Below are positions 5,027 to 37,659 of a DNA stretch of 64,000 nt, piece by piece (the first letter of the stretch is position 1; each line of letters opens with the position of its first letter). This DNA comes from Candidatus Dojkabacteria bacterium. Its GTDB lineage: Bacteria > Patescibacteriota > Dojkabacteria > SC72 > JAHDCA01. Position numbers and translations under genes: made by a program. The stretch covers positions 587,686-651,685 of the forward strand of contig CP129478.1 of NCBI GenBank assembly GCA_030583845.1, in the 5' to 3' direction. The notes under the pieces were generated by a model, which worked only from the letters and a program-made list of their open reading frames with translations, ran no database searches and was not told where the DNA came from.

Positions 5027-5154
5027 AGAACAGTTAGTTACATTGGCAATTCATATGGCGATCATATATTTGCTGTCCAAGCTCCCGCTGAGGCTATATA
5101 ATCGCTTGTAGACTTTACCGCTGATGCGGGATCTAATCCATAATAAGGGGATAT

Positions 5155-6738: not shown

Positions 6739-6859
6739 TATGGGAAAAATGCACGATCCATTTTCTGGGTTTCTGGGAACAACTAAACAACCCGGATTTT
6801 AAAGTACACGAATTCGTGTACTTTAAAGATAGTGATAGTTATGAGGAGTAAAAAGTGTT

Positions 6860-8693: not shown

Positions 8694-8706
8694 CAAGAGA
8701 TACAAC

Positions 8707-11736: not shown

Positions 11737-11903
11737 AGGTTCAACTGAATCTATAGATTTGGACGTAGTAGCTAGATCGATGAATTGCAACCCTCTCTCT
11801 TAGGCGACTGATGAGCTATCCTTCCCACCTCCCCTCATCCCTCATTTTAGTCTATAATAGACTATCCACTGTCCCATATACATTACCTATAAACCATCAA
11901 ACA

Positions 11904-16925: not shown

Positions 16926-17267
16926 ATGATGGACATACCGGAAATAATAGATACAATTAAATATGGTGTCCTCAAAATGGAGTTACCCCCACTAAATATC
17001 CCTAACAGTATTAGGCTCGAGTTCAAAACGGATCGTACAACTGGGCTGACATGGGCGACATCACCCGATCTGCCAGCTTTCGTAGTAACTGGATACTCCA
17101 ATGAAGAGATTTTAAAGGAGACATATGAGACTCTTTTAGTGTACTTTGATGTACCTACATATTTCGCTAAAAGAATGAATGATTACGGGGAAATAACTCT
17201 CCAGAATGGCGAAAAAGTCAGAATCACGGATGTAAAAATTCCCGAAAATTTAAACTATGCCAAATGA
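16926..17267 (+). CDS. hicB: HicB-family antitoxin (UPF0150/RNase H-like fold).
   Basis: ATSPDLPAFVVTGYSNEEILKETYETLLVYFD matches the HicB pattern FPDLPGC.T.G.T.EEA..NA.EAL. It overlaps the downstream hicA by 11 nt. Confidence 0.6.
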   Translation: MMDIPEIIDTIKYGVLKMELPPLNIPNSIRLEFKTDRTTGLTWATSPDLPAFVVTGYSNEEILKETYETLLVYFDVPTYFAKRMNDYGEITLQNGEKVRITDVKIPENLNYAK

Positions 17268-17526
17268 TATCAAGCTCCCAAATAGCACTAAGGAGTGTAT
17301 TAGACTACTTGAATCATTAGATTTTACTAGAAAGAGGAATGTCGGGAAAGGAAAACATCAGTACAAGTATGTTCATCCAGTACGTCGGTGTAATTGTGAC
17401 AATGAAAGGCCTTTCATTATAATCCCAACCCATTTTTACAAACAGTTGGGGAAGGATATCTGCAAGAAACTTATATGTTACGGGTATTCATGGGAGGAGA
17501 TACGGGGTGCCTGCCGTTCTAATTAG
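17257..17526 (+). CDS. hicA: HicA-family mRNA interferase toxin.
   Basis: ECIRLLESLDFTRKRNVGKGKHQYKYVHP...IIIPTHF.KQLGKDICKKLI fits the HicA/YcfA pattern (L..L...GF...R..GSHH....HP......P.H). Confidence 0.6.
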   Translation: MPNDIKLPNSTKECIRLLESLDFTRKRNVGKGKHQYKYVHPVRRCNCDNERPFIIIPTHFYKQLGKDICKKLICYGYSWEEIRGACRSN

Positions 17527-19376: not shown

Positions 19377-19414
19377 CTCTGAGATTAAGAGCTCAGACCC
19401 GATCGGGTCTGAGC
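19377..19414. promoter_or_regulatory. Palindromic operator-like array in the divergent rsmE / membrane-protein intergenic region.
   Basis: Perfect 24-bp palindrome GCTCAGACCCGATCGGGTCTGAGC at 19391-19414. A third TCTGAG half-site lies at 19377-19382, about 20 bp from the rsmE start codon. Confidence 0.4.
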
Positions 19415-19529
19415 GATTGAGCTATTCCTTATGACTATAGCAGAAATTAAGAAACCTTTATCATTAAGGTTACGAAAAAATAAATCTGGCGTATACTTCA
19501 ACAGTAGAATATAACTTTTATTTATAAGG

Positions 19530-21781: not shown

Positions 21782-23071
21782 ATGCGCAATCGCAAACTTT
21801 TCAAGGTTGTTGTGGTCTCGGCACTCGTGTTATTTGGCGGGTTTGTGGCTTTTCTCGGCTACACCTACTGGCAAACAAGCCCATCCAAATTATACGTCAC
21901 CAACATCACTGACCGTTCCGCTTCCATCTCGTGGGTCAGCAATGAGGCTACAACTGGTGTAGTGATAGTAAAGGAGGGCAACTACATGCTCCCTCTTAAG
22001 CTCACGACTAATGGTAGTACCCGCGCCGGCTTCGATGATAGAGATCGTGCCCGTGCAGAGCTTGAAGCATCCGAGCAGACAGCTGAAAATCTTGCAGATG
22101 GCACAGCCGCCACAGCAGATGATGTCCAGACAGATGTAACGATCAAGAACTATGGCGAGTATTATGTGCACCACGCCACAATCACAAATCTAAAGCCCGA
22201 AACTGAGTACGACTTTATGGTAGGCAATGGCTGGTTCTTCCACAAGGAGAAGAGTGTCGTTGGTGGATCAGACAAATTTACTACTTTCGCACAGCTTGAT
22301 CAGCTTGCCACTCCAAACCCATCATATGGCAAGGTGGTTCTACCTGGTGAAGGTGATGATTACGAATCGAGCACTGACTCAGTGCTTTATATGAGAGTGG
22401 ATTTTGGCGGTAACAAAGTATCTCAGGTATTGTCTTCGGTAACTGCTGAGAATGGATCATGGTATATCGACCTTGGAAATGCTCGAGATGAATTCGGCAA
22501 TGAGGTCGGAGAGGTGACAGAGGATTTAAATGAGAAGGTATGGGTCGAGGGTGGTCCAAATGGTATGGTTGAAGAGTTCGATAACCCTACAAGTCTGGAT
22601 GCGCCGATGCAGATACTGTTCTTAGAAACTGATGAGGTTGAGGCACGAGCGCCTTTTGATTTCTTAGCAGGTGAAGTAAATGCTGAGTGCTGTGAGGCGT
22701 TTACCTGTGTTGATGCCGACGGGACTACTGTAGCTTCGTATGGTGGTGACGATGACTTTGGAGGAGGTAGTTGTGAGACAAGAAAGACAGGCATCTGTCC
22801 GAGTGGTAGTTCGCCTGTAGGTGGAGCGAAGTGTGGTGATACATCATCGACACCTGGAGCTCCTTCGCAGCCTGGTGGTAGTCCAACTGCTCCAGCAGGG
22901 GCATGTTCGAGCCCTCAGTCAGGAAATTGCCACAACAAATACAACACATCGATCCAGATAGGGTCTAATCCGTATAATGCCTGCACTTGCACATTTTTAG
23001 ACAGCTCTAATCCGGCACTGTGCGGTTGCCATTATATTCCCTCCACAGACACCATCTCCTTCCAATCCTGA
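21782..23071 (+). CDS. Surface protein paralog 1, N-terminal part. It has an N-terminal TM anchor, an FN3/purple-acid-phosphatase-N-like domain, and the start of a Cys-rich region. It is probably the 5' portion of one frameshifted gene running to 24399.
   Basis: Hydrophobic KLFKVVVVSALVLFGGFVAFLGY. Domain signature SASISWVS...YYVHHATITNLKPETEYDFMVG. The Cys/Pro-rich tail continues without stops in another frame (23001-23459). Confidence 0.6.
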   Translation: MRNRKLFKVVVVSALVLFGGFVAFLGYTYWQTSPSKLYVTNITDRSASISWVSNEATTGVVIVKEGNYMLPLKLTTNGSTRAGFDDRDRARAELEASEQTAENLADGTAATADDVQTDVTIKNYGEYYVHHATITNLKPETEYDFMVGNGWFFHKEKSVVGGSDKFTTFAQLDQLATPNPSYGKVVLPGEGDDYESSTDSVLYMRVDFGGNKVSQVLSSVTAENGSWYIDLGNARDEFGNEVGEVTEDLNEKVWVEGGPNGMVEEFDNPTSLDAPMQILFLETDEVEARAPFDFLAGEVNAECCEAFTCVDADGTTVASYGGDDDFGGGSCETRKTGICPSGSSPVGGAKCGDTSSTPGAPSQPGGSPTAPAGACSSPQSGNCHNKYNTSIQIGSNPYNACTCTFLDSSNPALCGCHYIPSTDTISFQS

Positions 23072-23217
23072 GCCATCTGAAGTCGTCGCTCAACCCGGTG
23101 TTAACTGTGGCTCGCCTAGCAGTTCTAATCCATGTCCAATAACTGGACCTGAAACAGTCGTACAGGAGCCTCCGGTAGTCACACCGCCACCACCGACAAA
23201 TGATGATCCGATAACTA

Positions 23218-24399
23218 TTGAAGATGCTACAGCAATACCCGTTTCACCTGTTACCGGTGGTGATGAACCGGGCAGGTACGATGGGGTTCAGTGGACTGGT
23301 AGTAATGCGAGGGCAGAATGTGAAAGCTTATGTGATGGTAACTGTGTCGATCACTATAAGCCAGAGACTGAGGTTGGACGGTATTCAACTCCACAGTTCG
23401 CCTCAACTGCATGTGGGAATAATAGCAATTGTTATCCTGGTACTTGCGCCGTTGAGTGAGGCTTCTACTGGTGAATATGCAGCAATCTGTAACTTGTATC
23501 AATACACCGAGTGTGAAGTTTCCGATGAAATGTTTCAGGCTCCATCAGTGGTGAAGAGTGCGTACGCCCAAACCAACCCCGAATCCCAAGAGTTCCTCTT
23601 CGATCCATCAGCAGGCGTCTACTATGTGGGTGAAGCAGGTGTTTACCAGATCGAATATGAGGGTCAAACATATGAAGCAATTGTCGGAGAAGGTGATCAG
23701 AATGTAATACTGTATATCGACGAAAATGCAAATGGTACATACGATGAGGGTACGGACATTCAGATCTCAGTTAACCCATCGGAGCTAAATGTCGCCCAGA
23801 CCGCTGAGGCACACACATATGATTTGCAAGCTGGATTCAACTTTATCCACCTGCCATTTATCCCTGAAGATTACCCGATGGCATCTGACCTGTTGGAGTA
23901 TGTCAACAACGAGTATGGCGGAATTGCTTTCTCGATTGCCAAATTTGACGACACCTGGAAAGTAGTCGGTGCAAATGGTGGCGAGTTCAATGTAAATGAT
24001 TTCCAGCTCGTGCCAGGTGCTGGCTACCTGCTCAAAATAACTCAGGATACTGAGGTTACATTTACGGGGCGGGAGATCCTTTATGAAACTGAAGGCGATA
24101 CTGCGCCAGTATTCTTCGCACCAGGATGGAACTTGGTCGGTATCTACGGTAGTAATGCAGCTGTTTACTCGGCTGAATCCATGATTGACAGCCTAAACGA
24201 GTATGAAACGACAGATTTTACAGCGGTCAACGTCACACGATGGCCACCAGAGAAGGCACGGTATGAAGGATTGCAAAAGGAGATGGGTGAAGATGGAGAG
24301 TACGATGTATATGGCTTCGACTTCCCATTAAATCAGTATACTTCATACTTTGTGAGAATCACTGAAGGTACTGGTAATTGGGAGCCGGCGATGGAGTAG
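23218..24399 (+). CDS. Surface protein paralog 1, C-terminal part with the conserved ~200-aa C-terminal domain. It is probably the 3' portion of the same frameshifted gene.
   Basis: The C-terminus aligns with the C-terminus of 24782-27853: GFNFIHLPFIPEDYPMASDLLEYVNNEY...SIAKFDDTWKVVG...LVPGAGYLLK...PGWNLVGIYGS...YSAESMIDSLNE...TAVNVTRWPPEKARYEGLQKE...YGFDFPLNQYTSYFVRITEGTGNWEP. The real coding start is probably upstream by read-through from frame 3. Confidence 0.6.
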   Translation: MKMLQQYPFHLLPVVMNRAGTMGFSGLVVMRGQNVKAYVMVTVSITISQRLRLDGIQLHSSPQLHVGIIAIVILVLAPLSEASTGEYAAICNLYQYTECEVSDEMFQAPSVVKSAYAQTNPESQEFLFDPSAGVYYVGEAGVYQIEYEGQTYEAIVGEGDQNVILYIDENANGTYDEGTDIQISVNPSELNVAQTAEAHTYDLQAGFNFIHLPFIPEDYPMASDLLEYVNNEYGGIAFSIAKFDDTWKVVGANGGEFNVNDFQLVPGAGYLLKITQDTEVTFTGREILYETEGDTAPVFFAPGWNLVGIYGSNAAVYSAESMIDSLNEYETTDFTAVNVTRWPPEKARYEGLQKEMGEDGEYDVYGFDFPLNQYTSYFVRITEGTGNWEPAME

Positions 24400-24400
24400 G

Positions 24401-24561
24401 GCGCTAACCTATAATGCGTAGAATTGTACGGCTTATTAACCACCCGACCCACTTGCTTCGCAAGTGGTCGGGTGGTCGGGTGGCTAACCTTTATGGACTG
24501 TGATACTCTGATACTATCTACAGATTACAAATAAACTATTAACGCACTATGAGTTAGCGGC
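24401..24561. repeat. Composite nested palindromic element between the two surface paralogs, with family B half-sites flanking a family A hairpin.
   Basis: GCGCTAACCTATAATGCGTAG at 24401-24421. A CCACCCGACCCACTTGC-ttc-GCAAGTGGTCGGGTGG hairpin at 24440-24475. AACGCACTATGAGTTAGCGGC at 24541-24561 is the near reverse complement of the first half-site. Confidence 0.6.
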
Positions 24562-24810
24562 ATGAATAAGAAGAAGTTATACGTAATAATTGGGATTATC
24601 GCACTTTCGCTGGGCATCGCGGCGGTCAGCTTCTGGTTTGTAAATAGCAAAGCTCCCGATGTTGTGAATGTGACCAATGTGACATCGTCATCCGCGACAA
24701 TCTCGTGGGTAAGCGATGAAGCCGAACCCGGCAAGGTAATCGTCAAACGGGGTAATTACCCATTTCCATTCCAGCCGCGTAATGCAGAGCACGCAGGTAT
24801 ATTTCGATGA
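24562..24810 (+). CDS. Surface protein paralog 2, N-terminal fragment (TM anchor plus start of the FN3/PAP-N-like domain). It is truncated by a frameshift and continues in 24782-27853.
   Basis: MNKKKLYVIIGIIALSLGIAAVSFWF then SSATISWVSDEAEPGKVIVKRGNY. The stop is created at GGT ATA TTT CGA TGA. Paralog 1 reads RAGFDDRD at the same point, and here FDDRD continues in the +1 frame. Confidence 0.6.
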   Translation: MNKKKLYVIIGIIALSLGIAAVSFWFVNSKAPDVVNVTNVTSSSATISWVSDEAEPGKVIVKRGNYPFPFQPRNAEHAGIFR

Positions 24811-27800
24811 TAGAGATGTAGCCGAGTGGGAGGTGAATAATGCAAGCAGTGAAAGCGCATCTGTTGAATTACCAGACCTGACCGACGACGAGATCGGACT
24901 ATACTATACCCATCATGTCACTGTAGTCGGTCTTGAGCCCGATACAAAGTATGACTTTATGGTTGGCACTGGCAATTTCTTTTACAGAGCAACCGACCAT
25001 GATGGTGCAAATGAATTTACCACAGCCGCAATAGCCGACGAGATTGATACACCGGACCCTGCCTACGGCAAGATAGTGGCAACCGGTGAGACCATGTCTG
25101 ACCTGATCCCAGTCGTCGATGCAAATGTTTACTTCTATGTTGAGAATTCGTTTGGAGATGTTCTCACCAATAGGATCTCAGCAACATTAAATGATGAGGG
25201 CTCATGGTATCTCGACCTCAATACACTGTATGACAGTGAGGGAGAGGTATTCTTCTCAACTATCCCGGAAGAGGAGACAGAGCTCTACAAAGAGGTTGTT
25301 GAAGTTCATGTCCCAAGTGGTGATATCTACATGAAGCGAATCTCGCCTTCAGAGGACACTCCGGCTGAAGATATGCTGCTAATTGAAGATTATAAGGTTG
25401 AGAAAGCAATTGAAGGTGAACCCCCATTAAGTGGACTAGCATCATCCGCATATGCATGGGATCTTACCTGTCCAAATGGTAAAAAATTGCATGCTGATGC
25501 AGCTGATGAAGCCAGCTTTATAGCCGTATATGGCGCATCTCAAGCCCAATCGAAGTGGGAGCAGGAGGCAAGCGGCTACTGTGGCGACCCGAACACCCCG
25601 AGCTGGCAAGAGGGCCAGCCTACTGTACAGCTTACCGACGAAGTCTGCGCTGTAACCTATACTGAGACAGGCGCATTTGGCTCTAACGATGGCTGTGAGT
25701 ATAACTGTGTAGGTATGGGGCATAGAACCATAGGTGGTGATTGTAAGAATGAATGGGGTAATGGCTCCTACTGCCAGAAGAAAGATCCAAACTGTGGAAC
25801 TGTGTGCGTAGGTGGTGAAGTATGTAAGCAGGGAGATTTCTGTATTTCTGGTGATTATCAGTGCTGCACTGCAGGATGTAATGTGAGAGGCTCCGAGGGT
25901 GGTAGCTCAGGCTCTGGAAATGGGTCTGGTACTCCTACCAATCCATCTGTGTGCCCTAACAAGAAGCCTGACAATGCAACTGAGAGGTGTGGTGAAGATA
26001 ATGTCTGTAATACTGGTGAGTGGTGTGGAGACTTGAATGGTGTTAGCTGTAAGTGCGGTGAAGGGACTGTCGAGTGTGGGATGGTGTGTACACAGTCGAT
26101 CTCCGAAGGCAAGGTAGCTGTAAAAGTATGTTGCCTGTATCATGGTGTGCCATCGCTATTGACGAACTATACAGGGGAATGTCCAATAGGCTGGCAAGAG
26201 GGAACTCAGAACCAATGCAAGACAACGGCGGGTACGTTGCCAACAGAGCCTGTGTGTTGTAAACCTCCAAGTGGCGAGGATATATGGATGTATACTCCAT
26301 CGGGACAGTGTGAAGCGCCACTGGTTTCATCAACTTGTCCAGCCAAGCCTAAGCCTGTACCTCTGCCAATCAATCAATCAACTCCTGCTCCAGTCGTGAC
26401 AAGCGGCAGTGAGTATACAAACACATGCACTGTCGAGCCTAATCAGAGATGTGGTGATTGTAAAGGGCAGGTAGGTGAGGCAAATGGCATAACTTATATG
26501 TGTACAGATATTGGAGCCGGTAGCTTCTTATATTGGTGGAAAGCTGTTGTGCCTGCTGGTGAGAGATGTCCTGATGGAAATGAGTGTATATGTGTAACTA
26601 GAGGCGGTGATGGTTCGATCGAACATTACTCTGGTGACCACAATTGCAATTCTTTAGCGCAGCCTGCTGGATCGCTTACTCCGATAGGTAACAACCAGCA
26701 GTGTCCCGCGGACAGCAACGGATGCTTCTGTGATACTCAAAATGGATACATATATCCTGGCTCATGGTGTGGATATGCCGTCTCATGTGACGCCAATAAC
26801 GTCGGAAGCGTGTGTAATAACGATGGCACAACATGTGAATTCACTGAAGGACAAACGGCTACATATACTACGTTAGGTGGAGATACCAAGACTATGCCGT
26901 GGGATGAATGTCAAAATACCCCTGAGTGTATCAACGGCTATCCACAAGTTCGTTCAGGTGAATATACATGCACTGGTCCGACAGCTTCATCTTTGGACAA
27001 CGGGTCTGACCTCATCTCAGAAGCTAGCACAGCTGTGCTTGGTGCGGGAACGGGTAGGTCGGTCAAAGTGTCTCCTCAAAACAACGCTGTAGCTATAGAT
27101 GATAGTGGAATATATTGTACCGCTGTCGATGCTCAGGAGTACTGCTTCGAATTAACCGATGCAGCAGAAAATATCCTTTACGCTGATCTAAACGGTAATA
27201 ATACCTACGAAGAAGGTACTGATTTACTGGTCTCTCAGGATGGTAGAGAGCTTGAGCTCCAACAGCAAAATACCACCTTCGACTACCAGATGGTGAAAGG
27301 ATTCAATTTCGTCTCGTTCCCATTTGTTAACGCAAGCTATATGGCTACAGCTTCTGATCTACTGACCTATCTGAATTCCGAATATAGCAATGGTTTCTAC
27401 TCCATCGCGAAATTTGAAGCCGGTCGTTGGAGAATTGTTGGGAATAGAGAAGGCGACAACTATGGCTCAGAGGACTTCCCATTGGTTCCAGGAGAGGGAT
27501 ACCTGTTTAAAGCCAATCTTGACATCTTAATTTCATTAAGTGGTCAGCGAATTACAGAGCCAGTCCCAGTGTATATAGCAACAGGCTGGAACCTAATCGG
27601 TGTTAATAGCGGTAGCGATGAATCCAAATACACAGCTGAAAGCCTAATTGACGACGTTAACTCAACCGAGGGACTCACCGCAGTGAACCTATCGCGCTGG
27701 TCAACCAGCAAAGCCCGCTACGAAGGCCTACAGAAAGAAGATGTTGATGGCACTGCACAGGTTTATGGTTTCGACTTCCCGGTCGACAACCGTAGCTCAT

Positions 27801-27853
27801 ACTTCTTGAGAATCGTTGAAGGTGAGGGACTTTGGACACCCGACGCACAATAG
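24782..27853 (+). CDS. Surface protein paralog 2, main part. It has the rest of the FN3/PAP-N-like domain, a ~550-aa Cys-rich region (more than 60 Cys) and the conserved C-terminal domain.
   Basis: YYTHHVTVVGLEPDTKYDFMVGTGNFFY completes the domain. Cys-rich repeats read CxxGxxC...CC. The C-terminus is GFNFVSFPFVNASYMATASDLLTYLNSEY...GWNLIGVNSGS...KARYEGLQKE...YGFDFPVDNRSSYFLRIVEGEGLWTP. Confidence 0.65.
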   Translation: MQSTQVYFDDRDVAEWEVNNASSESASVELPDLTDDEIGLYYTHHVTVVGLEPDTKYDFMVGTGNFFYRATDHDGANEFTTAAIADEIDTPDPAYGKIVATGETMSDLIPVVDANVYFYVENSFGDVLTNRISATLNDEGSWYLDLNTLYDSEGEVFFSTIPEEETELYKEVVEVHVPSGDIYMKRISPSEDTPAEDMLLIEDYKVEKAIEGEPPLSGLASSAYAWDLTCPNGKKLHADAADEASFIAVYGASQAQSKWEQEASGYCGDPNTPSWQEGQPTVQLTDEVCAVTYTETGAFGSNDGCEYNCVGMGHRTIGGDCKNEWGNGSYCQKKDPNCGTVCVGGEVCKQGDFCISGDYQCCTAGCNVRGSEGGSSGSGNGSGTPTNPSVCPNKKPDNATERCGEDNVCNTGEWCGDLNGVSCKCGEGTVECGMVCTQSISEGKVAVKVCCLYHGVPSLLTNYTGECPIGWQEGTQNQCKTTAGTLPTEPVCCKPPSGEDIWMYTPSGQCEAPLVSSTCPAKPKPVPLPINQSTPAPVVTSGSEYTNTCTVEPNQRCGDCKGQVGEANGITYMCTDIGAGSFLYWWKAVVPAGERCPDGNECICVTRGGDGSIEHYSGDHNCNSLAQPAGSLTPIGNNQQCPADSNGCFCDTQNGYIYPGSWCGYAVSCDANNVGSVCNNDGTTCEFTEGQTATYTTLGGDTKTMPWDECQNTPECINGYPQVRSGEYTCTGPTASSLDNGSDLISEASTAVLGAGTGRSVKVSPQNNAVAIDDSGIYCTAVDAQEYCFELTDAAENILYADLNGNNTYEEGTDLLVSQDGRELELQQQNTTFDYQMVKGFNFVSFPFVNASYMATASDLLTYLNSEYSNGFYSIAKFEAGRWRIVGNREGDNYGSEDFPLVPGEGYLFKANLDILISLSGQRITEPVPVYIATGWNLIGVNSGSDESKYTAESLIDDVNSTEGLTAVNLSRWSTSKARYEGLQKEDVDGTAQVYGFDFPVDNRSSYFLRIVEGEGLWTPDAQ

Positions 27854-27896: not shown

Positions 27897-28232
27897 ATGT
27901 TAAATCAGATTCCCGCAGAATTTTGGATGGTTATTATCTCAGTCCTGACACTGTTCCTGGTATTTATCATGTACCAAATTGCCAACCTGTTGAAGGAAAG
28001 CACCAAGACTATGGCCGAGACAACCAAAGTTGTTACAGAGCTCCAGGATACAGTGAAGAAAGCCAATCTAGTGCTAGAGGATGCAGCAGAAGTTGTCTCA
28101 ATGACAAAAACCACTGTCGAAGAGGTACAGGATAACGTGGTGACTCCAGTCATTAAGATAGCTTCGATCATCGGTATGGTCTCAGATATTGTAGATAGCT
28201 TCACTGGCGGGTTCAAGGGCACCAAGGAGTAG
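27897..28232 (+). CDS. Small membrane-anchored protein, DUF948-like.
   Basis: N-terminal TM WMVIISVLTLFLVFIMYQIANLL followed by a charged coiled-coil-like region. Confidence 0.5.
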   Translation: MLNQIPAEFWMVIISVLTLFLVFIMYQIANLLKESTKTMAETTKVVTELQDTVKKANLVLEDAAEVVSMTKTTVEEVQDNVVTPVIKIASIIGMVSDIVDSFTGGFKGTKE

Positions 28233-28303
28233 CCATATCTTGCGCTGTGAGTATCCTACACGAGTAGACAATTTCTGCTCTGTTTCCTATTATAAAAGCA
28301 GAA

Positions 28304-30214
28304 ATGTACATCACACCTAGGCAGAAAAAAAGGTATATATTCAGATTCACACTTGTCGCTTTAGCCATTCCGCTAGTGGTTTTGGCCATCTATGCTGGTG
28401 TCCAATGGTTTTCAAGCGCTGACACCGAAGCAACTCCCGAGGATGTAGTTATCAGCAACCTCACTACCAGCGCTGTCACATTGAGCTGGACCACGACGGT
28501 GGATGCTAGCTCCAGCGTGAAGATGGTCGAAAGCGGAGATGTCTTCACCGATCCGCGAGGTGCAAGCTCAAGAAGGACCCATTTTGTTGAAGTCACTGGG
28601 CTCGAGCCAGAGACAGAGTATGAGTTCAAAATCACTTCAAATGGCCAGGATTATACCGCAGAGGGTGGAGCTGCATTTAGATTTACCACTGCCCCAGTGA
28701 GCGATGAGGCCTCAGTGCCCTTCCCAGCATATGGGACAATAGAGGGTGCGAATGGAGATGATGCACTTATTTTCTTCGTGGTTGCTGGTGCCACTCAATC
28801 TCTGCCGGTCTCAGCAGTGCCGCAATCAACAGGGAACTGGATCTTGGATCTATCTTCAGTCCGATCACTGGATGGTACTTCATTAATACAGGTCAGCAGC
28901 GATAGCTCTGTTGAGCTTCTGGCAATCGGGCATGACGGGATGGGCTCGAGAGTCACAGGAAAATTTAGCGATCTTTTCGACGAAGAGGGGATGCTTATTG
29001 CGGAATTTTCTCTTCAGTCCGATACCGATGTGATGGCCTACCTACCTGGCGCGTCAAAGATTACGACGATTATTGCTGAGCAGCCACCAGGAGAGGAACC
29101 ACCACCGTCTGAAGAACCACCACCATCTGAAGAGCCGCCTCCATCTGAAGAACCACCACCATCTGAAGAGCCACCTCCTGCTGAGGAGCCGCCACCATCT
29201 AACGACTTTGACCCTGCATCAAGACAGTTCCTGATTCGCGCCGATATCGTGTGGGTTGATATGGTTGAGATAACAGGCGATGGTGCTGCTCCAGTAGTTG
29301 TGACCGGTGAGCAGTCGGTACAGCTTGTTGCACGAAATGACACCAGCTTCTCTGTCGTATGGCTTACAGAAGATGAGGTCCCGGGCTATGTAAGCTATGG
29401 AGAGGATGAAGATGATCTGATCGAAGAGGCGATCGACATTCGCGACACCTTGGTATCGCGCGGAGATTACAGATCACACCTAGTCGAGATATCTGGTCTT
29501 ACCCCTGAGACCATATACTACTTTGAGATACATTCGGGCGACGAGACATACTCGTTGAACGGAGAGCCATATCAACTAGAAACATTTGACACAGTGGTCA
29601 CTCCACCACCATTTAGTACAGCCCAAGGCACAGTATCTGGCTTAGAGAGTTATGACGATGTTGTGGTGCTTGTGCAGCTAAATGATGTTGATGGCGCAGG
29701 TACTGCAGGTGCATCACAGCTTGGAGCTGTAGTCCCTGATGAGAATGGTGCTTGGATCGCAAGCATCGGCGACCTACGAAGCGAAAGTGGCACTGAGTAC
29801 TATGTGTTAGGCGATACAGATGAGGTTACAGCTGAATTGGTTGTATACGCTAATTCTGAGCCAGTCACGATTACAGGTGATGAGATTGAGGATAGTGAGC
29901 TAGCCTTGACTGCCGATCCGCCTACAGAGGGTGGGAGCAGCTACCAGCGAATAGCCTTGCTAAATGATTATGGGGTCTCATCGACCTATGCGGAGTCTCC
30001 AACAAGTGGCGTAGGGGGTGGTGGCCCTGCCGATGTCGATACTGGGAGCGAGATTACTACACCGAAGACCGGTATTGAAGATAACTTGGTAGTGGCTTCA
30101 GCGGTTGGTGGAGGTTTGCTTACGGTTGGGGCGGCTACTTTGTTGGTCGCTTACAGTGGTCGTGGCAAGAAGAAGGGCGTAAACAAGGGCTCTTTGACTA
30201 GTCGGGTCTCATAG
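28304..30214 (+). CDS. Cell-surface protein with an N-terminal TM anchor, two FN3-like domains, (EEPPPS)6 repeats and a C-terminal LPXTG-like sorting signal.
   Basis: FN3 signatures VTLSWTT...THFVEVTGLEPETEYEFKI and SFSVVWLTEDEV...YRSHLVEISGLTPETIYYFEI. The C-terminus reads TPKTG, then a 21-residue hydrophobic stretch, then RGKKKG. Confidence 0.7.
   Translation: MYITPRQKKRYIFRFTLVALAIPLVVLAIYAGVQWFSSADTEATPEDVVISNLTTSAVTLSWTTTVDASSSVKMVESGDVFTDPRGASSRRTHFVEVTGLEPETEYEFKITSNGQDYTAEGGAAFRFTTAPVSDEASVPFPAYGTIEGANGDDALIFFVVAGATQSLPVSAVPQSTGNWILDLSSVRSLDGTSLIQVSSDSSVELLAIGHDGMGSRVTGKFSDLFDEEGMLIAEFSLQSDTDVMAYLPGASKITTIIAEQPPGEEPPPSEEPPPSEEPPPSEEPPPSEEPPPAEEPPPSNDFDPASRQFLIRADIVWVDMVEITGDGAAPVVVTGEQSVQLVARNDTSFSVVWLTEDEVPGYVSYGEDEDDLIEEAIDIRDTLVSRGDYRSHLVEISGLTPETIYYFEIHSGDETYSLNGEPYQLETFDTVVTPPPFSTAQGTVSGLESYDDVVVLVQLNDVDGAGTAGASQLGAVVPDENGAWIASIGDLRSESGTEYYVLGDTDEVTAELVVYANSEPVTITGDEIEDSELALTADPPTEGGSSYQRIALLNDYGVSSTYAESPTSGVGGGGPADVDTGSEITTPKTGIEDNLVVASAVGGGLLTVGAATLLVAYSGRGKKKGVNKGSLTSRVS
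29093..29200 (+). repeat. 18-bp tandem repeat x6 encoding (EEPPPS)6.
   Basis: gaggaaccaccaccgtct and five near-identical in-frame units follow one another. Confidence 0.85.
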
Positions 30215-30282
30215 AGGTTATAACTGATGACTCCTGCAGCTCAATCAAGGCTAATTCTTAATCGTTCCCACACCTATAGCCT

Positions 30283-30311
30283 TGTAAACTTTTTGCCTAA
30301 TCAGTACAATT
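30283..30311 (+). promoter_or_regulatory. Candidate promoter (TTGTAA, 17-nt spacer, TACAAT) for gene 30338.
   Basis: -35 box at 30283-30288 and -10 box at 30306-30311, 26 nt upstream of the ATG. Confidence 0.35.
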
Positions 30312-30337
30312 TGGCAATTTAGCTTCTGTAATATTGA

Positions 30338-31864
30338 ATGTTGAAACTCGATAAAAGCAATTCACTATTTTTTCTGTTGGGCATCTTTGCACTGCTTTTT
30401 CTCGGCTATGTAGCCCTTTTCTATGAAAGCGATGCTTTTTATAGCGATGCGAAAGCCCCGGCAGAAGCATCCACAAGTAGCGAAGAGGCTGGTGGGTCAC
30501 AGGAAGTAGTGTTGGTGGGAAATACGGTCGGAGAAAATGTGGAAGTCCCAGAGATCACCGAAGAGCAGTATCGTCTTGTAAAAGAGCTAGTAATTGCAGC
30601 CGAGCCTTCACTCGCGAGCATGAGCAATCTGGATGAGGTTATTCGGGAGCCATATCTGGCTCAAAATATTGCTAGCCTGATGGAGCAGGTGGAAGAAAAT
30701 GATCTGACAGTGACACAGGTTCGAGCATCAGTACGTGGTGCTGGTACTGGGGATTTTAGCCCGACCGGTGAAGATTGCGCGGCAGGCGCGAAGGTGATTT
30801 TGATGGATCCGGCCTGTTATATTACCGAAGAAAACACCTCAATTAACGAGAATCTAGGTAACTATGTAGGCTCAGGGTGTGACAATAACCCTGCAACCCC
30901 GTGCCAGGTGCGGGCCAGCTCAGTTATTGAGCCGTGGGAGATCAATGGCCCAGATCAGAACCAGGGCTACTCTGCTGGAACTGATGTACGAGGAAAGACC
31001 GAGAGTGAACGGATCCTGATTCAGAACAAGCAGATGAAAGATGGAGTCCTAGCCTATCACTCAGAGAGCGGTAGCTATTATGGCGATGCCTCGGATGCGG
31101 AGAAGTATGAGCAGTTCAAGCAGGTAAATATGGGCGTGGCAAATTTGCTACGTCCACAGCTAGCAAGGGAGGTTTCAGAAGACTCAGCTGATGCCAAGAG
31201 AGACTTTGCAGTAGAGATCTGCGCAGGTGGTGAAGAGGTGTGTGATCAGAACGAGAAGACATTGGCCAGATTCAAAGGTACCAACTCAGATGGTGATTAT
31301 CTTAGCCCTGCAAACAGCAATAAATTTGCCGAGGCCAGATATTTTGGGAAGGCGCTCCAGCCACCTACTGGTGAGGTCGAGACTGAGCTACGAAATGAAT
31401 GCGTTGATAACAGCTCTCCACAATATCGCAATATTAGTAAGACAGATCAGCTATGTCTTGGGTCACGCAGGGTTTCTGATGTGTATCATGGCGTAAAGCA
31501 GCTTGGCAATGAGATACTTTGCAGACTAAGGCCGAATGACAGCGATTGTCAGCTACAGGTTGTTACAGGCATCCAGGTCGGTTCGATGTTTGGCGATACT
31601 GAGTATTTTGTTGAAGGAATATCTAGCAACTATATGGCAGAAGCAATGGTTTCAGTGTATTCTTCCCCTGTTGATGACAGGAATGTGACTATGCTTAGAA
31701 CTCCGTGTACAATACGTATAGATTATTCTAAGATTGTTGACGTATACTGTTATATCAAGAATCAGAATGAGTATGCAGAGTTCTCAAGGCAGGCTGCAGA
31801 GATGACGCCCGGAGATTCATTCAAGTATGAAGCATATGGAAGCGCGCTTGAGGAGGAGTTTTAA
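30338..31864 (+). CDS. Secreted or membrane-anchored Cys-containing hypothetical protein.
   Basis: N-terminal hydrophobic anchor FFLLGIFALLFLGYVALF. About 14 Cys are scattered in the mature part. No recognisable catalytic motif was seen. Confidence 0.55.
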   Translation: MLKLDKSNSLFFLLGIFALLFLGYVALFYESDAFYSDAKAPAEASTSSEEAGGSQEVVLVGNTVGENVEVPEITEEQYRLVKELVIAAEPSLASMSNLDEVIREPYLAQNIASLMEQVEENDLTVTQVRASVRGAGTGDFSPTGEDCAAGAKVILMDPACYITEENTSINENLGNYVGSGCDNNPATPCQVRASSVIEPWEINGPDQNQGYSAGTDVRGKTESERILIQNKQMKDGVLAYHSESGSYYGDASDAEKYEQFKQVNMGVANLLRPQLAREVSEDSADAKRDFAVEICAGGEEVCDQNEKTLARFKGTNSDGDYLSPANSNKFAEARYFGKALQPPTGEVETELRNECVDNSSPQYRNISKTDQLCLGSRRVSDVYHGVKQLGNEILCRLRPNDSDCQLQVVTGIQVGSMFGDTEYFVEGISSNYMAEAMVSVYSSPVDDRNVTMLRTPCTIRIDYSKIVDVYCYIKNQNEYAEFSRQAAEMTPGDSFKYEAYGSALEEEF

Positions 31865-31882
31865 TATTAAGTAACGCCCAAA

Positions 31883-33361
31883 ATGGTAGATCGAATATAT
31901 AAGATATACAAATTCGCAGGAAAGATAGCTAGGTCGAGGGCTTTGAACAGTGCGCTGGTGCTTGTGGCGACATTCGGTCTAGGCTTGGAGGTCGTATCGC
32001 CAATTGTCTATGCACAAGACGGCGAAGGTAATGCAACCGTTGACGCAGGAGAGTCTTATACTTCTGGGACTGCTGTGATTGATACTCTGACAGAGTCAGA
32101 GGGTGTGACAGACAGTGCGAATCTGGCACAAAATCAGGCAACAGACTTCGCGATTGTTGCACTTTCGATTACATGTATGGAGTGTCTCGAGAATGCAGAT
32201 GATGTGGCTGCCAACCCAAATATCCATCCTTCTGCAAAGACAAGTCTACTGACCCTCGTTGATAATAACAATAGACAGATGCTTACAAATCCGCCTACAC
32301 AGAACCTTTACGCACATATGCAGACCCAGTGGATGCCAGGCGAGACATATGCAAATAGAAGCGTCTATGCTCAGTCTGGGTATGACTTACTCATATCGAC
32401 CGGCATTGATCAGCTCTGGGAAAATGTGAGAAATGTTGCCTACGTTATCTTCGTGCTAGTGCTTATAGTTGCCGGGTTTATGATGATGTTTAGGCAGAAA
32501 ATAGGTGGTCAACTGGCTGTGACGGTATTCAACACAATTCCTCAGGTCATAATATGCCTGATATTGGTAACATTCAGTTTCGCCATAGTCGGTTTAGTCT
32601 TAAATCTTAGCGCCACGCTTACAAATGTAGCTGCTGGTATTCTTGGCCTAGCTGATCCGACAGATGGTGTAACGGCCACGGGGCCGCTTTCAGTGTTTAG
32701 CGCATTTATTTCTGGGAATATTGTTACTGTTGGTGCGGCAAGTGTAACGACAATAGTAACTACAGTAGCAGGATCGATCTTGGCAAATAGTGGAATTGCA
32801 GCACTGGGTATAGCTGCCTCTCCATTGGCAGGTGGTACACTAGCTATTATAGGTCTTGTTGGCATCTTGATAGTGTTAGTTATCCTCGGAATCGTTCTGG
32901 TTGGATCAGTGAAGGTATGGATTACCCTTCTAAAGGCATATGTTGGTATACTTATCGATACAATATTGGCTCCACTCTATTTAACAATGTCCGCCTTGCC
33001 TGGCAGATCTCAGATGCGCGGAGATTGGTTTAGACGAATCCTCAAAAATGCATTAACTTTTACTGTTGTGTTTTTCTTCCTTAATCTTGCGGCTTTTGTA
33101 TTTAATGCAAACATTAATCTTGGATTTCCTACCTCTCTGGCAGAAGGTCAGACAGCTCCAGTTGGCTCTGGCCCCGTTTTGCTTGCGTGGCTGCTGAAAG
33201 GTGCAGTCTCGATCTATCTAGTATATGTAGCGGCTGAGGCACCTAAATTCCTTGAAGAGTTCTTGCCGCAGACTGGTGGGAAGAGTGTTGCAGGGGCACT
33301 GCAGTCAGCTGCTAAGGGTGCATTTGGCAAGCTTCCAATTGTCGGTGGCATGATGGGCTAA
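31883..33361 (+). CDS. Polytopic membrane protein with a VirB6/TrbL-like topology: a signal peptide, a ~170-aa extracytoplasmic domain, then 5-7 TM helices.
   Basis: Signal-like SALVLVATFGLGLEVVSPIVYAQ. Dense TM bundle from VAYVIFVLVLIVAGFMMMF onward, with Gly/Ala-rich helices. Confidence 0.6.
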   Translation: MVDRIYKIYKFAGKIARSRALNSALVLVATFGLGLEVVSPIVYAQDGEGNATVDAGESYTSGTAVIDTLTESEGVTDSANLAQNQATDFAIVALSITCMECLENADDVAANPNIHPSAKTSLLTLVDNNNRQMLTNPPTQNLYAHMQTQWMPGETYANRSVYAQSGYDLLISTGIDQLWENVRNVAYVIFVLVLIVAGFMMMFRQKIGGQLAVTVFNTIPQVIICLILVTFSFAIVGLVLNLSATLTNVAAGILGLADPTDGVTATGPLSVFSAFISGNIVTVGAASVTTIVTTVAGSILANSGIAALGIAASPLAGGTLAIIGLVGILIVLVILGIVLVGSVKVWITLLKAYVGILIDTILAPLYLTMSALPGRSQMRGDWFRRILKNALTFTVVFFFLNLAAFVFNANINLGFPTSLAEGQTAPVGSGPVLLAWLLKGAVSIYLVYVAAEAPKFLEEFLPQTGGKSVAGALQSAAKGAFGKLPIVGGMMG

Positions 33362-33437
33362 TGAGCTGTTTTTCGACCAATTCCCAAGCTGAGAGAATCA
33401 GGCCACTGTTCTGAAATAATTATGTGAGCATAACTTA

Positions 33438-36400
33438 ATGGCGCAAAGAAAAGACCTATACTCCAATTCGTTCTCCTCGGTGTCGAGCTTTATTTTGGGT
33501 AATAACAAGCCTAAGAAGCCTGTAAAACGCAAGCCGCCTAAGTATGATGGGATTGATTATAATGATGGTCTCGCAGGCGCGCTTGCAACCATGGCAGGTG
33601 CGCCTGGTGTGTTTCTGGGTGAATCAGCCATAAACTCGCTTAACTCCACCCTTGGAGACCCTTCTCTGATAGAGCTTTATATTGATAAAAGCGAGAAGCA
33701 AAAGATGCAGGGTCTGGATAAGAATGCTGGACGTATTAGGGTCCGTGGATCTGACCTTAACAAGTTTATACAGTCTCCAAGCTCATTTCTCGACAAGGCA
33801 CTTCAAGGTGCACGTGCTGAACGGAAGTGGGCACTTACGGTAGCGCTTCTTGGTGGTGGTGCAGAGGTAGCAAATACCTATATGTGGGCAAAGAAAAACA
33901 ACCTCAGCAATAGTGATGCAGCTCGGCTTGCAAGCTCGGTATGGGATCTGGATAAGAGTATTTACACCGATCAAGAAAGTCTTGGAATAATGACAGAAAC
34001 GGCGCTCCTTAAGAGTGGAGGCCGGTCGATCAAAGAGGCTGAGGAATTAAACGCCAAACTTGTGGCGAGCGTGGCAAAGCAGAAAGAGGGTAGGCAGACT
34101 GTATCACGTTTATGGACTGGAGCGGCATCCGATGTTTCTGATCACATAATGTCTGGTGCACTGTTTAAATCTCAAGATGAGTACTCAAAATTTCTCTTGG
34201 AGAAGGGTCTTAAAGATAAGGAACGAGACTTAGTCTTGAAGCTTAGAGCAGGTACACTTACGGAACCGGAGGAAGTTAGTTACGCCAATCGGCTTGAGAA
34301 TGATCTCAAGTCTGCCGCTGCAGCAGGATGGCCTAAAATTACGTCGCAGAAGACAAAGCTAGATGCTCTTGTTAGTCAGAGCATACCAGATCCGGCAGCT
34401 CGTGAGCGATTCTATCAAGAGTTTGCGAAAGAGTATACCTCAAGGTATGGAAAAGTTGATTATACGGCAACAGGCAACTTAACGAATTTCGGTGTCCGCG
34501 AGATGTTGAAGGATAATTATTGGGCGAAGGCACAGCTTTCGACTGGAGCTGATAAGGAGAAGTATCTGAGAACAATAGCAGCTGTAGATGTATTGCAGAG
34601 GACGAAATCGCCGGGTGATTATTCAAAGCCTGATTACGATAAAGCAAGAGAGGCTGTTACATCACTCAAAGGACAGCCAGGTGTATCTCAGTCGGATATA
34701 GATGGCCTCTTGGGACAGATAAATAAAGCGGAGTCAATGTACGCAAAACGGTATGTTAAGCATCGTGCGCATAATGAGGTTGAAACTAAGTGGCTAAAGC
34801 CACTTAATAATCCGATGATGTCCTATGAAAATGCTCCTGAGGCCAAGCTTTTGCTTGAGGCCAAGCTGAAAACAAGCAGATATAGTCTTATATCACGAGG
34901 TTTAGCAGTGGATGACCCACGGGTACAAGAGATCGATTATGCGTTGGAGACGTTAAAAAGTGGGTTCAACCCGTTTGGTGGTGGTCGTCCACGTATGGCA
35001 AATATGATAATGATGTACCGCTCAAGGGGTAGCATGGCAAATTTTGTACCTGGGCTGTTTACTGGTGCTTCCTATGCCGATGGTGTGATGTCACCAGGGG
35101 ATTGGGGAGGGATCACTATGAAATATAGGATGAAAGATCGTTGGGGGGTTGATAAGAACGGTAACCCGAAGTTACAGGTCGGAGAAGCTAAAGGATTTAT
35201 CCTGCAAGGCCGCTCGCACCTTCCAACTGCATATCAAGGGCTAGTGAACTACTACTATCTGACTCCAGGCAGTTTGATCAAGAGTACATTGTGGAATGGT
35301 GAGGGTCTTTACTACCTTGCAGAGCAACGAAGGCGCCGAGGGATTACCAAGATGCTTTCTGAGCTCGATCCCGATAAAATCCAGAATCCAACAGGCTCCC
35401 TGGCGAAGTACTTCGAAGCGTTGAAGGATGATGCGGGCAATGTAACGGGGCATAGGTTTATGTGGGAAAAGGTGGATGGGGATTTTCTTGGGATTCTGGA
35501 AGCGCTAAAAGATTCTGGCTACGCTGAACTATACAGGAAGTATGACAAAGTATTTAGAGGATATGAGTCTACTGTCGCGTGGGCGCATAGATTCGCAATG
35601 CCTGAAAGATTTTTCGGAAATAAGGGGGTAATCGGAGCGCAAAGACTTAAACTTCAAGGTAAAGTTGTACAATTCTTTGGTGCATTGTCAAAAAATAAAG
35701 AATGGAATGCTGCACTTAAGCTGTTCGGAGCAGGTGAGATCGGGCTCTATCAGCTGGTCGAGGCTGGTGTGAAGATTGTATTTGGCACAGTACTTAAGGC
35801 TCTCGGCCCAGTCGGTACCGTACTCTCATTTGTCATCACGGATGTAATTGTCTCAGCCCTTGTCAAAATAAGCAAACCAATCCTCGATATGAGCGTATTT
35901 GCCCTAATGGCAACGGTCGCTCTCTTCTTCCTACTTCTCTGTACAGTAATCTCAAGCCCATTCACTCTTGCCAACCGCCTCAAGACACATGCAGTCCAGC
36001 CGCCAGTCGAGGGAGTCGAGCTCGAGCCATTGCCAGGTGAATTCCCGGATGATCCAGATGCAGTAGTTATTGACCCAACCAAAGATGCGATCTGTCCAAT
36101 AAATGCAGGTGCAATCTGTACGCAGGGACCACGCGGCTCCTACTCACACGCCAGGATGGGTACATATGCAATCGATGTGAGCACAGGTGCAGGTCCATTC
36201 AGAGCGCCAACCGATGGTGTAGTTGTGAGTGTGAGATCGTCAAACTCTTGCCCATGGGGACCAAACCGTGGAGCAAATTATGGTGGATCTGTTGTTTTCC
36301 GATCGTCGGATAATATCTACTATGAAGTGATGCACGCAAATCCAACAGTAGGCACTGGTCCTGTTGAGCAGGGCACAGTGTTAGCGACAATGGCTTACGG

Positions 36401-36554
36401 ATTGCCACGAAGCGGGTGCTGGACTGGGGCACACTACCATATCGATACCTGCTTCGGCAGCCAGTCTGCTTGTGTAGCTCGAAGCCGAAGTGCCAGATGG
36501 CTTAACTCTAAAGATTGGTATAACGAGTTGAAATGTAATATCCGCGGATGTTAG
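33438..36554 (+). CDS. Large (1038 aa) protein with a ~760-aa N-terminal domain, an internal TM hairpin and a C-terminal M23 (LytM-type) peptidase domain.
   Basis: M23 motifs HARMGTYAIDV...GAGPFRAPTDGVVV (HxxxD and active-site region) and GAHYHID (HxH). TM segments at aa ~770-840 (IVFGTVLKALGPVGTVLSFVITDVIVSALV and VFALMATVALFFLLLCTVI). Confidence 0.7.
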   Translation: MAQRKDLYSNSFSSVSSFILGNNKPKKPVKRKPPKYDGIDYNDGLAGALATMAGAPGVFLGESAINSLNSTLGDPSLIELYIDKSEKQKMQGLDKNAGRIRVRGSDLNKFIQSPSSFLDKALQGARAERKWALTVALLGGGAEVANTYMWAKKNNLSNSDAARLASSVWDLDKSIYTDQESLGIMTETALLKSGGRSIKEAEELNAKLVASVAKQKEGRQTVSRLWTGAASDVSDHIMSGALFKSQDEYSKFLLEKGLKDKERDLVLKLRAGTLTEPEEVSYANRLENDLKSAAAAGWPKITSQKTKLDALVSQSIPDPAARERFYQEFAKEYTSRYGKVDYTATGNLTNFGVREMLKDNYWAKAQLSTGADKEKYLRTIAAVDVLQRTKSPGDYSKPDYDKAREAVTSLKGQPGVSQSDIDGLLGQINKAESMYAKRYVKHRAHNEVETKWLKPLNNPMMSYENAPEAKLLLEAKLKTSRYSLISRGLAVDDPRVQEIDYALETLKSGFNPFGGGRPRMANMIMMYRSRGSMANFVPGLFTGASYADGVMSPGDWGGITMKYRMKDRWGVDKNGNPKLQVGEAKGFILQGRSHLPTAYQGLVNYYYLTPGSLIKSTLWNGEGLYYLAEQRRRRGITKMLSELDPDKIQNPTGSLAKYFEALKDDAGNVTGHRFMWEKVDGDFLGILEALKDSGYAELYRKYDKVFRGYESTVAWAHRFAMPERFFGNKGVIGAQRLKLQGKVVQFFGALSKNKEWNAALKLFGAGEIGLYQLVEAGVKIVFGTVLKALGPVGTVLSFVITDVIVSALVKISKPILDMSVFALMATVALFFLLLCTVISSPFTLANRLKTHAVQPPVEGVELEPLPGEFPDDPDAVVIDPTKDAICPINAGAICTQGPRGSYSHARMGTYAIDVSTGAGPFRAPTDGVVVSVRSSNSCPWGPNRGANYGGSVVFRSSDNIYYEVMHANPTVGTGPVEQGTVLATMAYGLPRSGCWTGAHYHIDTCFGSQSACVARSRSARWLNSKDWYNELKCNIRGC

Positions 36555-36567
36555 TTAGGAATCAAAT

Positions 36568-37659
36568 ATGGACAAGCTGCTCAACATAATAAAAAAGAAT
36601 AAAGTCGTGGTGCTTGGAGCTCTAGGGCTGTTGCTGGTAATTGCTATTGCACTAATTGTTATGCAGCTAATTGGTGGTGAAGAGACAGAAATCCCGAAAG
36701 GGAGTGTTGACCAGCCTTTTACATATGAGACGGGCAAGCAGTTGGAGATACCGGAAACAGTTGAGTACACAAATTTCGACCCAGGTGATGATACGACTGC
36801 GCCAATTTACGAATTTGCACTTGAGAATAAAGTCGATCTTGTGAAATCGTTCCTGGGTAGCATCGGTAAACGCTCGATGGAGCTCGAGGAGTATGAGGAT
36901 GTTGTGTATTACTGGAGAGATGACCCGAGCGATGATTTCTATGTGGTTGAGTACAACGCGTTGACCGACCGTGTATTCTTTAGATTTGAGAGCGCTGTAG
37001 ATCCAGACCTGAATGCTGGTGGATATCTGAGCAGAGAGGATCTCGAACAGTATTTTACTGCTTTTGTTCATGAGTATTGGGATCAGTCGTACAGCTACAC
37101 TGATTTCAATGTGACTAGGGATGGATCGACTTATCGAATTGAGGCGAGCAGGCTGATTGGGAAGTATCCTTTGCACATCTCTGGCTTTGAAGAGTATTCG
37201 GATTATCTGGTTGTTGAAGATGATGGAGATATACTCGAGGGGCAGATCTATCTGATGAATTACGATCTCTCTACAGCACAGAATGTTGATCTTATTACGA
37301 CAGTTGGTCTCGGATCAGTGATCGGGCGAGATGATTATCCGAAGGATTTCTATCAATTGGAGCCTCAAGATCTTGATGGTACCTTATTATATGGTGAGCC
37401 ATACACACCTGCACAATCAGCAGGTGATCCTCCTCCAACGCCTGATGGTGAGATCCCAGAATTGACCGAGTGCACAGCTGAAGAGATATCGTTGGTGTAC
37501 CTCTACATGAGCGGTACATATCAGATGCTTACCCCAGCGTATAAGATCAGGTGTGCTGGAAATGTCGTCGTAGAAGGTAGGAGCTATAGAACAGAGGCGC
37601 TTGTTTTTGCCAATGCGATCGATCCGGAGCTTGTGTATGTGCCGGCAACGACGGAGTAG
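36568..37659 (+). CDS. Membrane-anchored extracytoplasmic hypothetical protein.
   Basis: N-terminal TM VVVLGALGLLLVIAIALIVMQLI. Acidic, aromatic-rich body with C-terminal Cys residues. Confidence 0.55.
   Translation: MDKLLNIIKKNKVVVLGALGLLLVIAIALIVMQLIGGEETEIPKGSVDQPFTYETGKQLEIPETVEYTNFDPGDDTTAPIYEFALENKVDLVKSFLGSIGKRSMELEEYEDVVYYWRDDPSDDFYVVEYNALTDRVFFRFESAVDPDLNAGGYLSREDLEQYFTAFVHEYWDQSYSYTDFNVTRDGSTYRIEASRLIGKYPLHISGFEEYSDYLVVEDDGDILEGQIYLMNYDLSTAQNVDLITTVGLGSVIGRDDYPKDFYQLEPQDLDGTLLYGEPYTPAQSAGDPPPTPDGEIPELTECTAEEISLVYLYMSGTYQMLTPAYKIRCAGNVVVEGRSYRTEALVFANAIDPELVYVPATTE

Follow-up and report, generated by a model that had tools for sequence, protein, structure and literature searches.

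The frame break that divides the 82-aa ORF at the head of this region from the 1023-aa ORF behind it is an ordinary one: at a locus that varies between strains, it marks either a lesion of the assembly or a young pseudogene. The break lies in a 64-kb window (the whole 64,000-nt stretch of DNA that was analyzed) of a metagenome-assembled Candidatus Dojkabacteria contig of 1,036,382 bp, a 1.04-Mb contig that represents a near-complete genome. The ORFs at 24562-24810 and 24782-27853 are the two halves of a single gene of ~1096 aa, which we refer to as paralog 2. The explanation that we tentatively put first, without great confidence, is that the consensus or the joining of contigs went wrong at a locus that varies among co-occurring strains; we infer, in other words, that the assembly rather than the cell is the cause of the breaks. 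The consensus would have been called over mixed haplotypes, or contigs would have been put together with a one-base offset where the assembly graph branches, and the cells would carry an intact ~1096-aa gene for a membrane-anchored surface protein. The break in paralog 2 (site A) is a net one-base insertion, one of three in tandem surface-protein genes, and on this reading it is not a programmed event. Read literally, the record would instead encode an anchored 82-aa stub with half a beta-sandwich, followed by 1023 aa without an export signal, for which the surface would be out of reach. The coordinates of the features discussed below are collected in Table 1.

Table 1. Gene pieces, break sites, same-strain contigs and downstream genes, in window coordinates
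Feature	Position	Strand	Description
Contig L009	19410 back to 7543		Same-strain Logan contig, beyond 19410
Contig L011	19410 back to 13156		Same-strain Logan contig, beyond 19410
Contig L005	19385-23028		Same-strain Logan contig, left side
Contig L006	19385-22251		Same-strain Logan contig, left side
Contig L007	19385-21866		Same-strain Logan contig, left side
Paralog 1, N-terminal piece	21782-23071	+	429 aa, WKZ30740.1; anchor, FN3-like domain, start of Cys-rich region
Paralog 1, middle piece	23001-23459	+	Open in the third frame, no start codon; about ortholog residues 402-548
Site B	23029-23070	+	First +1 break of paralog 1; Pro/Ser/Thr linker just past the conserved CGC motif
Paralog 1, C-terminal piece	23224-24399	+	391 aa, WKZ30741.1; from ~23461 homologous to the orthologs' conserved C-terminal domain
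Site C	23448-23459	+	Second +1 break of paralog 1; context TGC GCC GTT GAG TGA; outside homopolymer
Paralog 2, upstream piece	24562-24810	+	82 aa, WKZ30742.1, "hypothetical protein"
Site A	24763-24804	+	Interval of the net one-base insertion, from ortholog comparison and contig boundary
Paralog 2, downstream piece	24782-27853	+	1023 aa, +1 frame, WKZ30743.1
Contig L008/L012	24803-38232 and onward		Same-strain Logan contig, right side, within a 16.3-kb contig
Downstream cluster, first genes	27897-37659		DUF948 protein of 111 aa; 636-aa protein
636-aa protein			Two FN3-like domains, five EEPPPS repeats (29078-29203), C-terminal hydrophobic anchor
Downstream cluster, further genes	27897-37659		508-aa protein; 492-aa multi-pass protein with weak TrbC/VirB2 match; 1038-aa protein; 363-aa protein

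The 82-aa piece comprises a Lys-rich N-terminus with a hydrophobic membrane anchor and the first three or four FN3-like strands, and it overlaps the 1023-aa ORF by 29 nt. The latter completes the FN3-like domain and continues with a second beta-rich domain, a middle that is variable and Cys-rich, and a C-terminal domain (~270 aa) that is conserved; it lacks both a signal and an anchor. Removal of one base yields a repaired protein of 1096 aa with 50 Cys, in which the Pfam family PF16656 (Pur_ac_phosph_N, FN3-like) covers residues 35-138 on both sides of the break with a score of 34.5 bits (gathering cut-off, 30 bits); the same family matches the N-terminal piece of paralog 1 at 37.6 bits. In an AlphaFold (AF2) model of the N-terminus of the ortholog P0002 (mean pLDDT 68), a transmembrane helix at residues 2-30 is followed by strands at 35-82, a disordered insert at 97-113 and the remaining sandwich strands at 115-153. 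By this model, a break at about residues 72-81 would cut the beta-sandwich mid-way. The N-terminal hydrophobic anchor is present in every homolog and absent from the 1023-aa product. With its 50 Cys, the paralog 2 protein looks extracellular, and its architecture would run from an N-terminal transmembrane helix through an FN3-like domain, a second beta domain and a disulfide-rich variable middle to the conserved C-terminal domain; its putative function is cell-surface or adhesion-related.

So far, the family is confined to Dojkabacteria, with 15 matches among 5.8 billion clusters, and its conserved C-terminal domain measures ~190-270 aa. A confident AlphaFold model of this domain (27002-27850, and 23548-24396) is mostly beta, with pLDDT mostly above 90 over residues 90-283 (~190 residues). 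The domain has no Pfam family and no PDB match by Foldseek better than E = 0.07, and may represent an undescribed fold or family restricted to Dojkabacteria. A third family member is seen at window positions 1-471, where an ORF open to the window's left edge encodes the last ~138-145 residues of the same domain.

The earlier note on this DNA had read the codons at 24793-24810 as GGT ATA TTT CGA TGA (AGIFR, then stop) and the continuation in the +1 frame as FDDRDVA, and had proposed that a single-base frameshift truncates one gene after 82 aa. Both readings are correct (the codons are GCA GGT ATA TTT CGA TGA, in which the stop is the TGA at 24808-24810 with a TAG directly next, and TTC GAT GAT AGA GAT GTA GCC in the +1 frame), and the proposal is upheld by the Pfam domain that spans the break and by the frame shift of the orthologs in tblastn. 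Residues 1-72 of the orthologs match in frame 1 (24562-24777), with E = 9e-24 for P0002 and 1e-24 for P0003, and the matches resume in frame 2 with residues 77-1114 of P0002 from 24791 and residues 80-1097 of P0003 from 24800; the resemblance is not due to chance. Between the Tyr66 codon and DDRD there are 46 nt in the window vs 45 nt in both orthologs, and the lesion is therefore a net one-base insertion.

ORF logic alone permits this insertion anywhere in about 24740-24807. For a finer placement, each base was deleted in turn and the repaired peptide was scored against the orthologs. The best deletions lie at 24777-24790, scoring 42-46 against P0002, and against P0003 the best score, 42, is reached at 24777-24778. 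The extra base had been taken earlier to be a T in 24799-24804, which this comparison does not bear out: repair in the T-run (…HAGIFDDRD) scores 20 and 25, among the lowest of the positions tried. At the DNA level, identity to the ortholog-bearing contig L001 is 37/60 for an indel up to 24788 and 27/60 for one in the T-run, with L002 giving a flat profile, and the T-run (TTT, 24802-24804) is favored solely by the contig boundary between 24802 and 24803. Site A lies somewhere within about 24763-24804, with the orthologs favoring 24777-24790; the location first proposed is correct to within ~25 nt, although the T-run is not its best-supported placement. Two similarities compete at this point, namely the RAGFDDRD of paralog 1 and the resemblance of the frame-2 sequence TQVYFDDRD to the orthologs' TQLYYDDRD. 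The likeness to RAGFDDRD, to which the earlier note had pointed, is real, but paralog 1 is not the intact reference for which it was taken, as it carries two further +1 breaks.

The paralog 2 orthologs P0002 (1114 aa, 58% identity) and P0003 (1097 aa, 57%) are single intact ORFs. Five orthologs of paralog 1 were found as well (860-881 aa, all intact), so that 7/7 of the orthologs found for both paralogs are intact single ORFs in conserved synteny. The loci of P0002 and P0003 share the gene order of the window, which runs from a DUF4153 protein through paralogs 1 and 2 to a ~110-aa protein and a ~630-aa FN3 protein; in L001, the contig of which is long enough, the order continues with proteins of ~510, ~495 and ~1030 aa. 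A more distant relative has one intact gene copy (1165 aa) at the equivalent locus, and a scan of GTDB species genomes and JGI metagenomes with an N-terminal alignment found no relative. The cluster downstream of the paralogs (27897-37659) keeps its gene order across several Dojkabacteria (also in L001 and L003), and is probably a surface or pilus-like apparatus. The spacer between the paralogs (24400-24561) is 162 nt long vs 18-27 nt in the relatives L001 and L002; it contains a hairpin with a strong 16-bp stem (24440-24475; fold z-score -5.9), the sequence of which occurs once in the window, and then a short GTCGGGTG duplication.

Paralog 1 (21782-24399) falls into three frame segments separated by two net +1 breaks, sites B and C. 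In tblastn, frame 2 matches residues 1 to ~400 of its orthologs and runs to about 23029-23047, frame 3 (23070-23465) matches residues ~402-548, and frame 1 (from 23461) matches the remainder from ~550 to the end. The frame at site B is restored by the removal of any one base within 23029-23069, and this removal together with that of one base at ~23448-23459 gives a protein of 871 aa. The middle piece appears to be unannotated in GenBank, where the recovered accessions WKZ30740-30743 cover the flanking pieces only. The hexamer TATATT is found ahead of sites A and B but not at site C; as it occurs 28 times per strand in the window, we ascribe this to chance.

Sites A, B and C thus constitute three net +1 breaks inside 1.78 kb, all in the same direction; the chance of three random sites falling this close is p of about 0.002. 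A whole-window gene map with three-frame checks of suspicious spots found no other split gene in the 64-kb window, in which L14 and L24, among others, are intact. Both paralogs are otherwise clean: they have no in-frame stops and no large deletions, keep all family-invariant residues, and reach repaired lengths of 1096 and 871 aa vs 1097-1114 and 860-881 aa in their respective orthologs. Considering that all of the 88 homopolymers of 5-8 nt inside intact genes (88/88) are in frame, the breaks are not generic long-read errors, and their cause must be local. The site A interval contains nothing longer than T3, homopolymers of more than 3 are absent from all three sites, and the longest runs in the two paralogs (A6, C5 and T5) are at none of the break sites. 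No tandem repeats were found in either paralog. A diversity-generating retroelement or cassette repeats were considered and set aside, as a search for repeats of the template/variable type gave none. The paralogs have in common only short stretches of 71-77% DNA identity, which makes cross-mapping or gene conversion between them unlikely as well. Elsewhere in the window, at 16926-17526, two overlapping ORFs in different frames (113 and 89 aa; the pair 16926/17257) are two small genes rather than a split gene, and by eye they resemble an antitoxin-toxin pair of the HicB/HicA type.

Contigs from the same strain could be identified in public read sets. The upstream DUF4153 protein is 100% identical in the Logan assemblies of DRR779145, DRR779146 and SRR24881069, and the Logan contigs match the window at 100% without gaps over 6-16 kb on both flanks, while the paralog 1/paralog 2 interval (21866-24803) is fragmented in all three runs. 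L005 ends one base before site B, and the first base of the right-hand contig is the second T in the TTT of site A. In total, 2/4 contig ends lie at break intervals, with p = 0.007 when the intervals are defined by homology and p = 0.09 when they are the broad ones given by ORF logic; the contig ends of the three runs lie at different places, and some may merely reflect low coverage. A contig from a k-mer graph stops where the next base is ambiguous. The base to the left of TTCGATG… is T in the record and would be A in an allele one T shorter, and we infer that a diverged haplotype would have an equal effect. A sister strain of 97.5% identity is present in DRR779146, so that at least this run contains mixed haplotypes; the paralog locus itself appears to differ between co-occurring strains. 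The mixed population for which the earlier note had suggested a check is indirectly supported by the failure of the same-strain contigs to cross the break sites. Exact look-ups found nothing beyond this NCBI record for the 82-aa stub and the 1023-aa piece of paralog 2, the 391-aa and 152-aa pieces of paralog 1, six versions with alternative starts and the two repaired proteins, an absence that is weak evidence, as the one product of a contig-end-cut gene that we tested was absent from the protein collection too. The homology search missed two proteins known to be in the collection, making its negatives unreliable.

Two further features of the left flank emerged from these contigs. At 19382-19423, between divergent genes, lies a near-perfect palindrome of two adjacent 21-nt arms. 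All three same-strain contigs on one side of it share the start 19385, and the two across from them share the end 19410; the assembly break at this palindrome is consistent and structural in cause. Further to the left, at 5020-11852, the window carries a type I restriction-modification island with hsdM, hsdS, a 205-aa T5orf172/MUG113-like ORF and hsdR. The island is missing from the 97.5% sister strain in DRR779146, which has ~0.84 kb with a 153-aa ORF instead (L010:6942-7784), and is a strain-variable defence island.

Weighing these observations, we prefer an error in consensus or joining because the insertions all run in the same direction, are confined to the stretch that does not assemble and lie in genes that are otherwise undamaged and intact in the relatives. 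A fixed clonal lesion should be spanned by same-strain contigs; these stop instead, which is a further reason for our preference. Three breaks that are all +1 fit a repeated procedural error, and the loss of both copies here, with the rest of the cluster intact, would be odd. Against an error count the p = 0.09 that the contig-end coincidence has under the broad intervals, and the fact that the placement favored by the orthologs (24777-24790) differs from the contig boundary at site A, for which a pure joining-error model does not account. Surface-protein genes are, moreover, a classic place for real loss-of-function mutations. Since surface proteins accumulate such mutations, we consider it a close second, and quite possible, that genuine recent one-base insertions (two in paralog 1 and one in paralog 2) have inactivated both genes, which would then be young pseudogenes, maybe alongside intact alleles. 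The frames are indeed broken relative to intact orthologs, and the damage is limited to two functionally linked, fast-evolving surface-protein genes among more than 60 other window genes that are intact, a pattern that relaxed or negative selection on a surface antigen would be expected to produce. The homopolymers elsewhere are right and the assembly is generally accurate, and there is at least one further family member, at the left edge of the window, so that the function may be redundant. Yet three independent +1 insertions, with no nonsense change, no larger deletion and no loss of an invariant residue, would require a very short and lucky history. The locus is, in addition, conserved and intact in every relative examined, the same-strain contigs stop at the sites instead of crossing them, and the stub ORF is called in no other assembly on record. 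Of the three origins offered in the earlier note, sequencing error and recent pseudogenization are both viable and jointly hold most of the probability, while the third, an on/off switch, has no tract to act on.

We consider it unlikely that in-frame and out-of-frame alleles of both paralogs coexist in natural populations of the strain (e.g., TT/TTT at 24802-24804) and create on/off heterogeneity at the population level without a classical repeat tract. Slightly less likely again is a true phase-variable switch, in which the T-run at 24802-24804 flips between TT and TTT, with the surface protein made in one state and not in the other. In its favor are the nature of the target, a surface protein, and the same-strain contig that starts exactly at 24803, at the branch point that a TT/TTT difference would be expected to leave in a k-mer graph, by our reasoning on such graphs; but assemblers normally collapse a one-base bubble, which does not end a contig. 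Slipped-strand switching at contingency loci is frequent from a tract length of about 7 or more, and T3 falls far short of that. Furthermore, the orthologs read TAC TAC GAT GAC or TAT TAT GAC GAC at this point and conserve no tract, their comparison places the insertion upstream of the T-run, and the breaks in paralog 1 are outside any repeat. A programmed +1 ribosomal frameshift of the prfB type, by which tRNA-Phe would slip from UUU to UUC at UUU CGA and the recorded sequence would yield the full-length protein, is very improbable. UUU-C does re-pair perfectly in the +1 frame, AGGU lies 3 nt upstream, and the CCC-U at site B can also re-pair. Nevertheless, the break recurs in no ortholog (two of paralog 2 and five of paralog 1 are single ORFs), and CGA, the codon in the A site, ranks second in use among the Arg codons (168/14760, or 11.4 per thousand), leaving no hungry-codon pause; Shine-Dalgarno pairing seems to be barely used in the genome, site C has no slippery codon, and by inspection no codon in 24777-24790 is able to re-pair in the +1 frame. 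We give just as little credence to two separate functional genes with independent translation of the 82-aa and 1023-aa ORFs, even though GenBank annotates two CDSs and an ATG is available at 24782. This layout would split one Pfam domain and one beta-sandwich, was found in no ortholog, and would leave a long product with 50 Cys yet without the anchor found in every homolog. A conserved start of the downstream ORF had been named earlier as evidence for its independence; the ATG is not conserved, its Met aligning with Ser in P0002 and with Ile in P0003. An RBS test of this ORF is uninformative in a genome that hardly uses Shine-Dalgarno sites, and a promoter and terminator scan near the break gave nothing above shuffled expectation.

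Several observations on the decoding of the window were made alongside. The leaders of 39 gene starts are mostly AT-rich and without Shine-Dalgarno sequences, with ~4/39 binding the anti-SD better than -6 kcal/mol. Among 36 confident genes, the stop codons are TAA (16), TAG (16) and TGA (4). An alternative genetic code was rejected: the TGA at site A is followed by TAG, TGA ends 4/36 of the confident genes, and the code is the standard one. Quadruplet decoding was rejected too, as GAGC/GAGT fits sites A and C only and the invariant DDRD would be lost if the site A stop were read through.

With regard to annotation, the four CDSs in GenBank (WKZ30740-30743) are pieces of two genes, and counts of gene content, pseudogenes and surface proteins are misled by them. 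If the breaks are artefacts, they illustrate how a cluster of frame breaks in a metagenome genome that is otherwise complete flags a region of mixed haplotypes. The biology of use here lies in the locus rather than in the frameshift: its apparent variation among co-occurring strains suits tandem surface proteins exposed to diversifying pressure in members of the candidate phyla radiation (CPR). Real and polymorphic out-of-frame alleles would amount to a modest but genuine on/off heterogeneity at the surface of a CPR bacterium. Should in-frame and out-of-frame alleles coexist, this would be surface variation in an ultra-small, probably host-dependent bacterium, in which a lineage-specific disulfide-rich protein varies beside a conserved cluster with a TrbC/VirB2-like protein.

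Compared with known systems, the locus resembles the indel errors made in the consensus or joining of metagenome assemblies: single-base breaks are clustered in genes that are otherwise intact, independent assemblies of the same strain fragment there, and at least one run also contains a sister strain. It differs from plain errors of this type in that one break position, as inferred from the orthologs, is 15-25 nt off the contig boundary. The frameshifted surface or adhesin-like genes, with their intact orthologs and their ORFs in two or three pieces, are also reminiscent of the young surface-protein pseudogenes of host-dependent bacteria with reduced genomes, but no other decay is seen here, all lesions are insertions and the flanking apparatus genes are fully intact. 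With the contingency loci of Neisseria, Haemophilus and Campylobacter, site A shares a difference in length that changes the frame close to the 5' end of a surface gene and hints of population heterogeneity; unlike these loci, it has a T3 only, with nothing comparable in the orthologs, and the other two breaks are outside repeats. Finally, the +1 shift, the possible P-site slip from UUU to UUC and the nearby zero-frame stop recall the +1 frameshifting of prfB, from which site A departs in that it is not conserved, has no slow A-site codon and lies in a genome that seems to make little functional use of a Shine-Dalgarno context.
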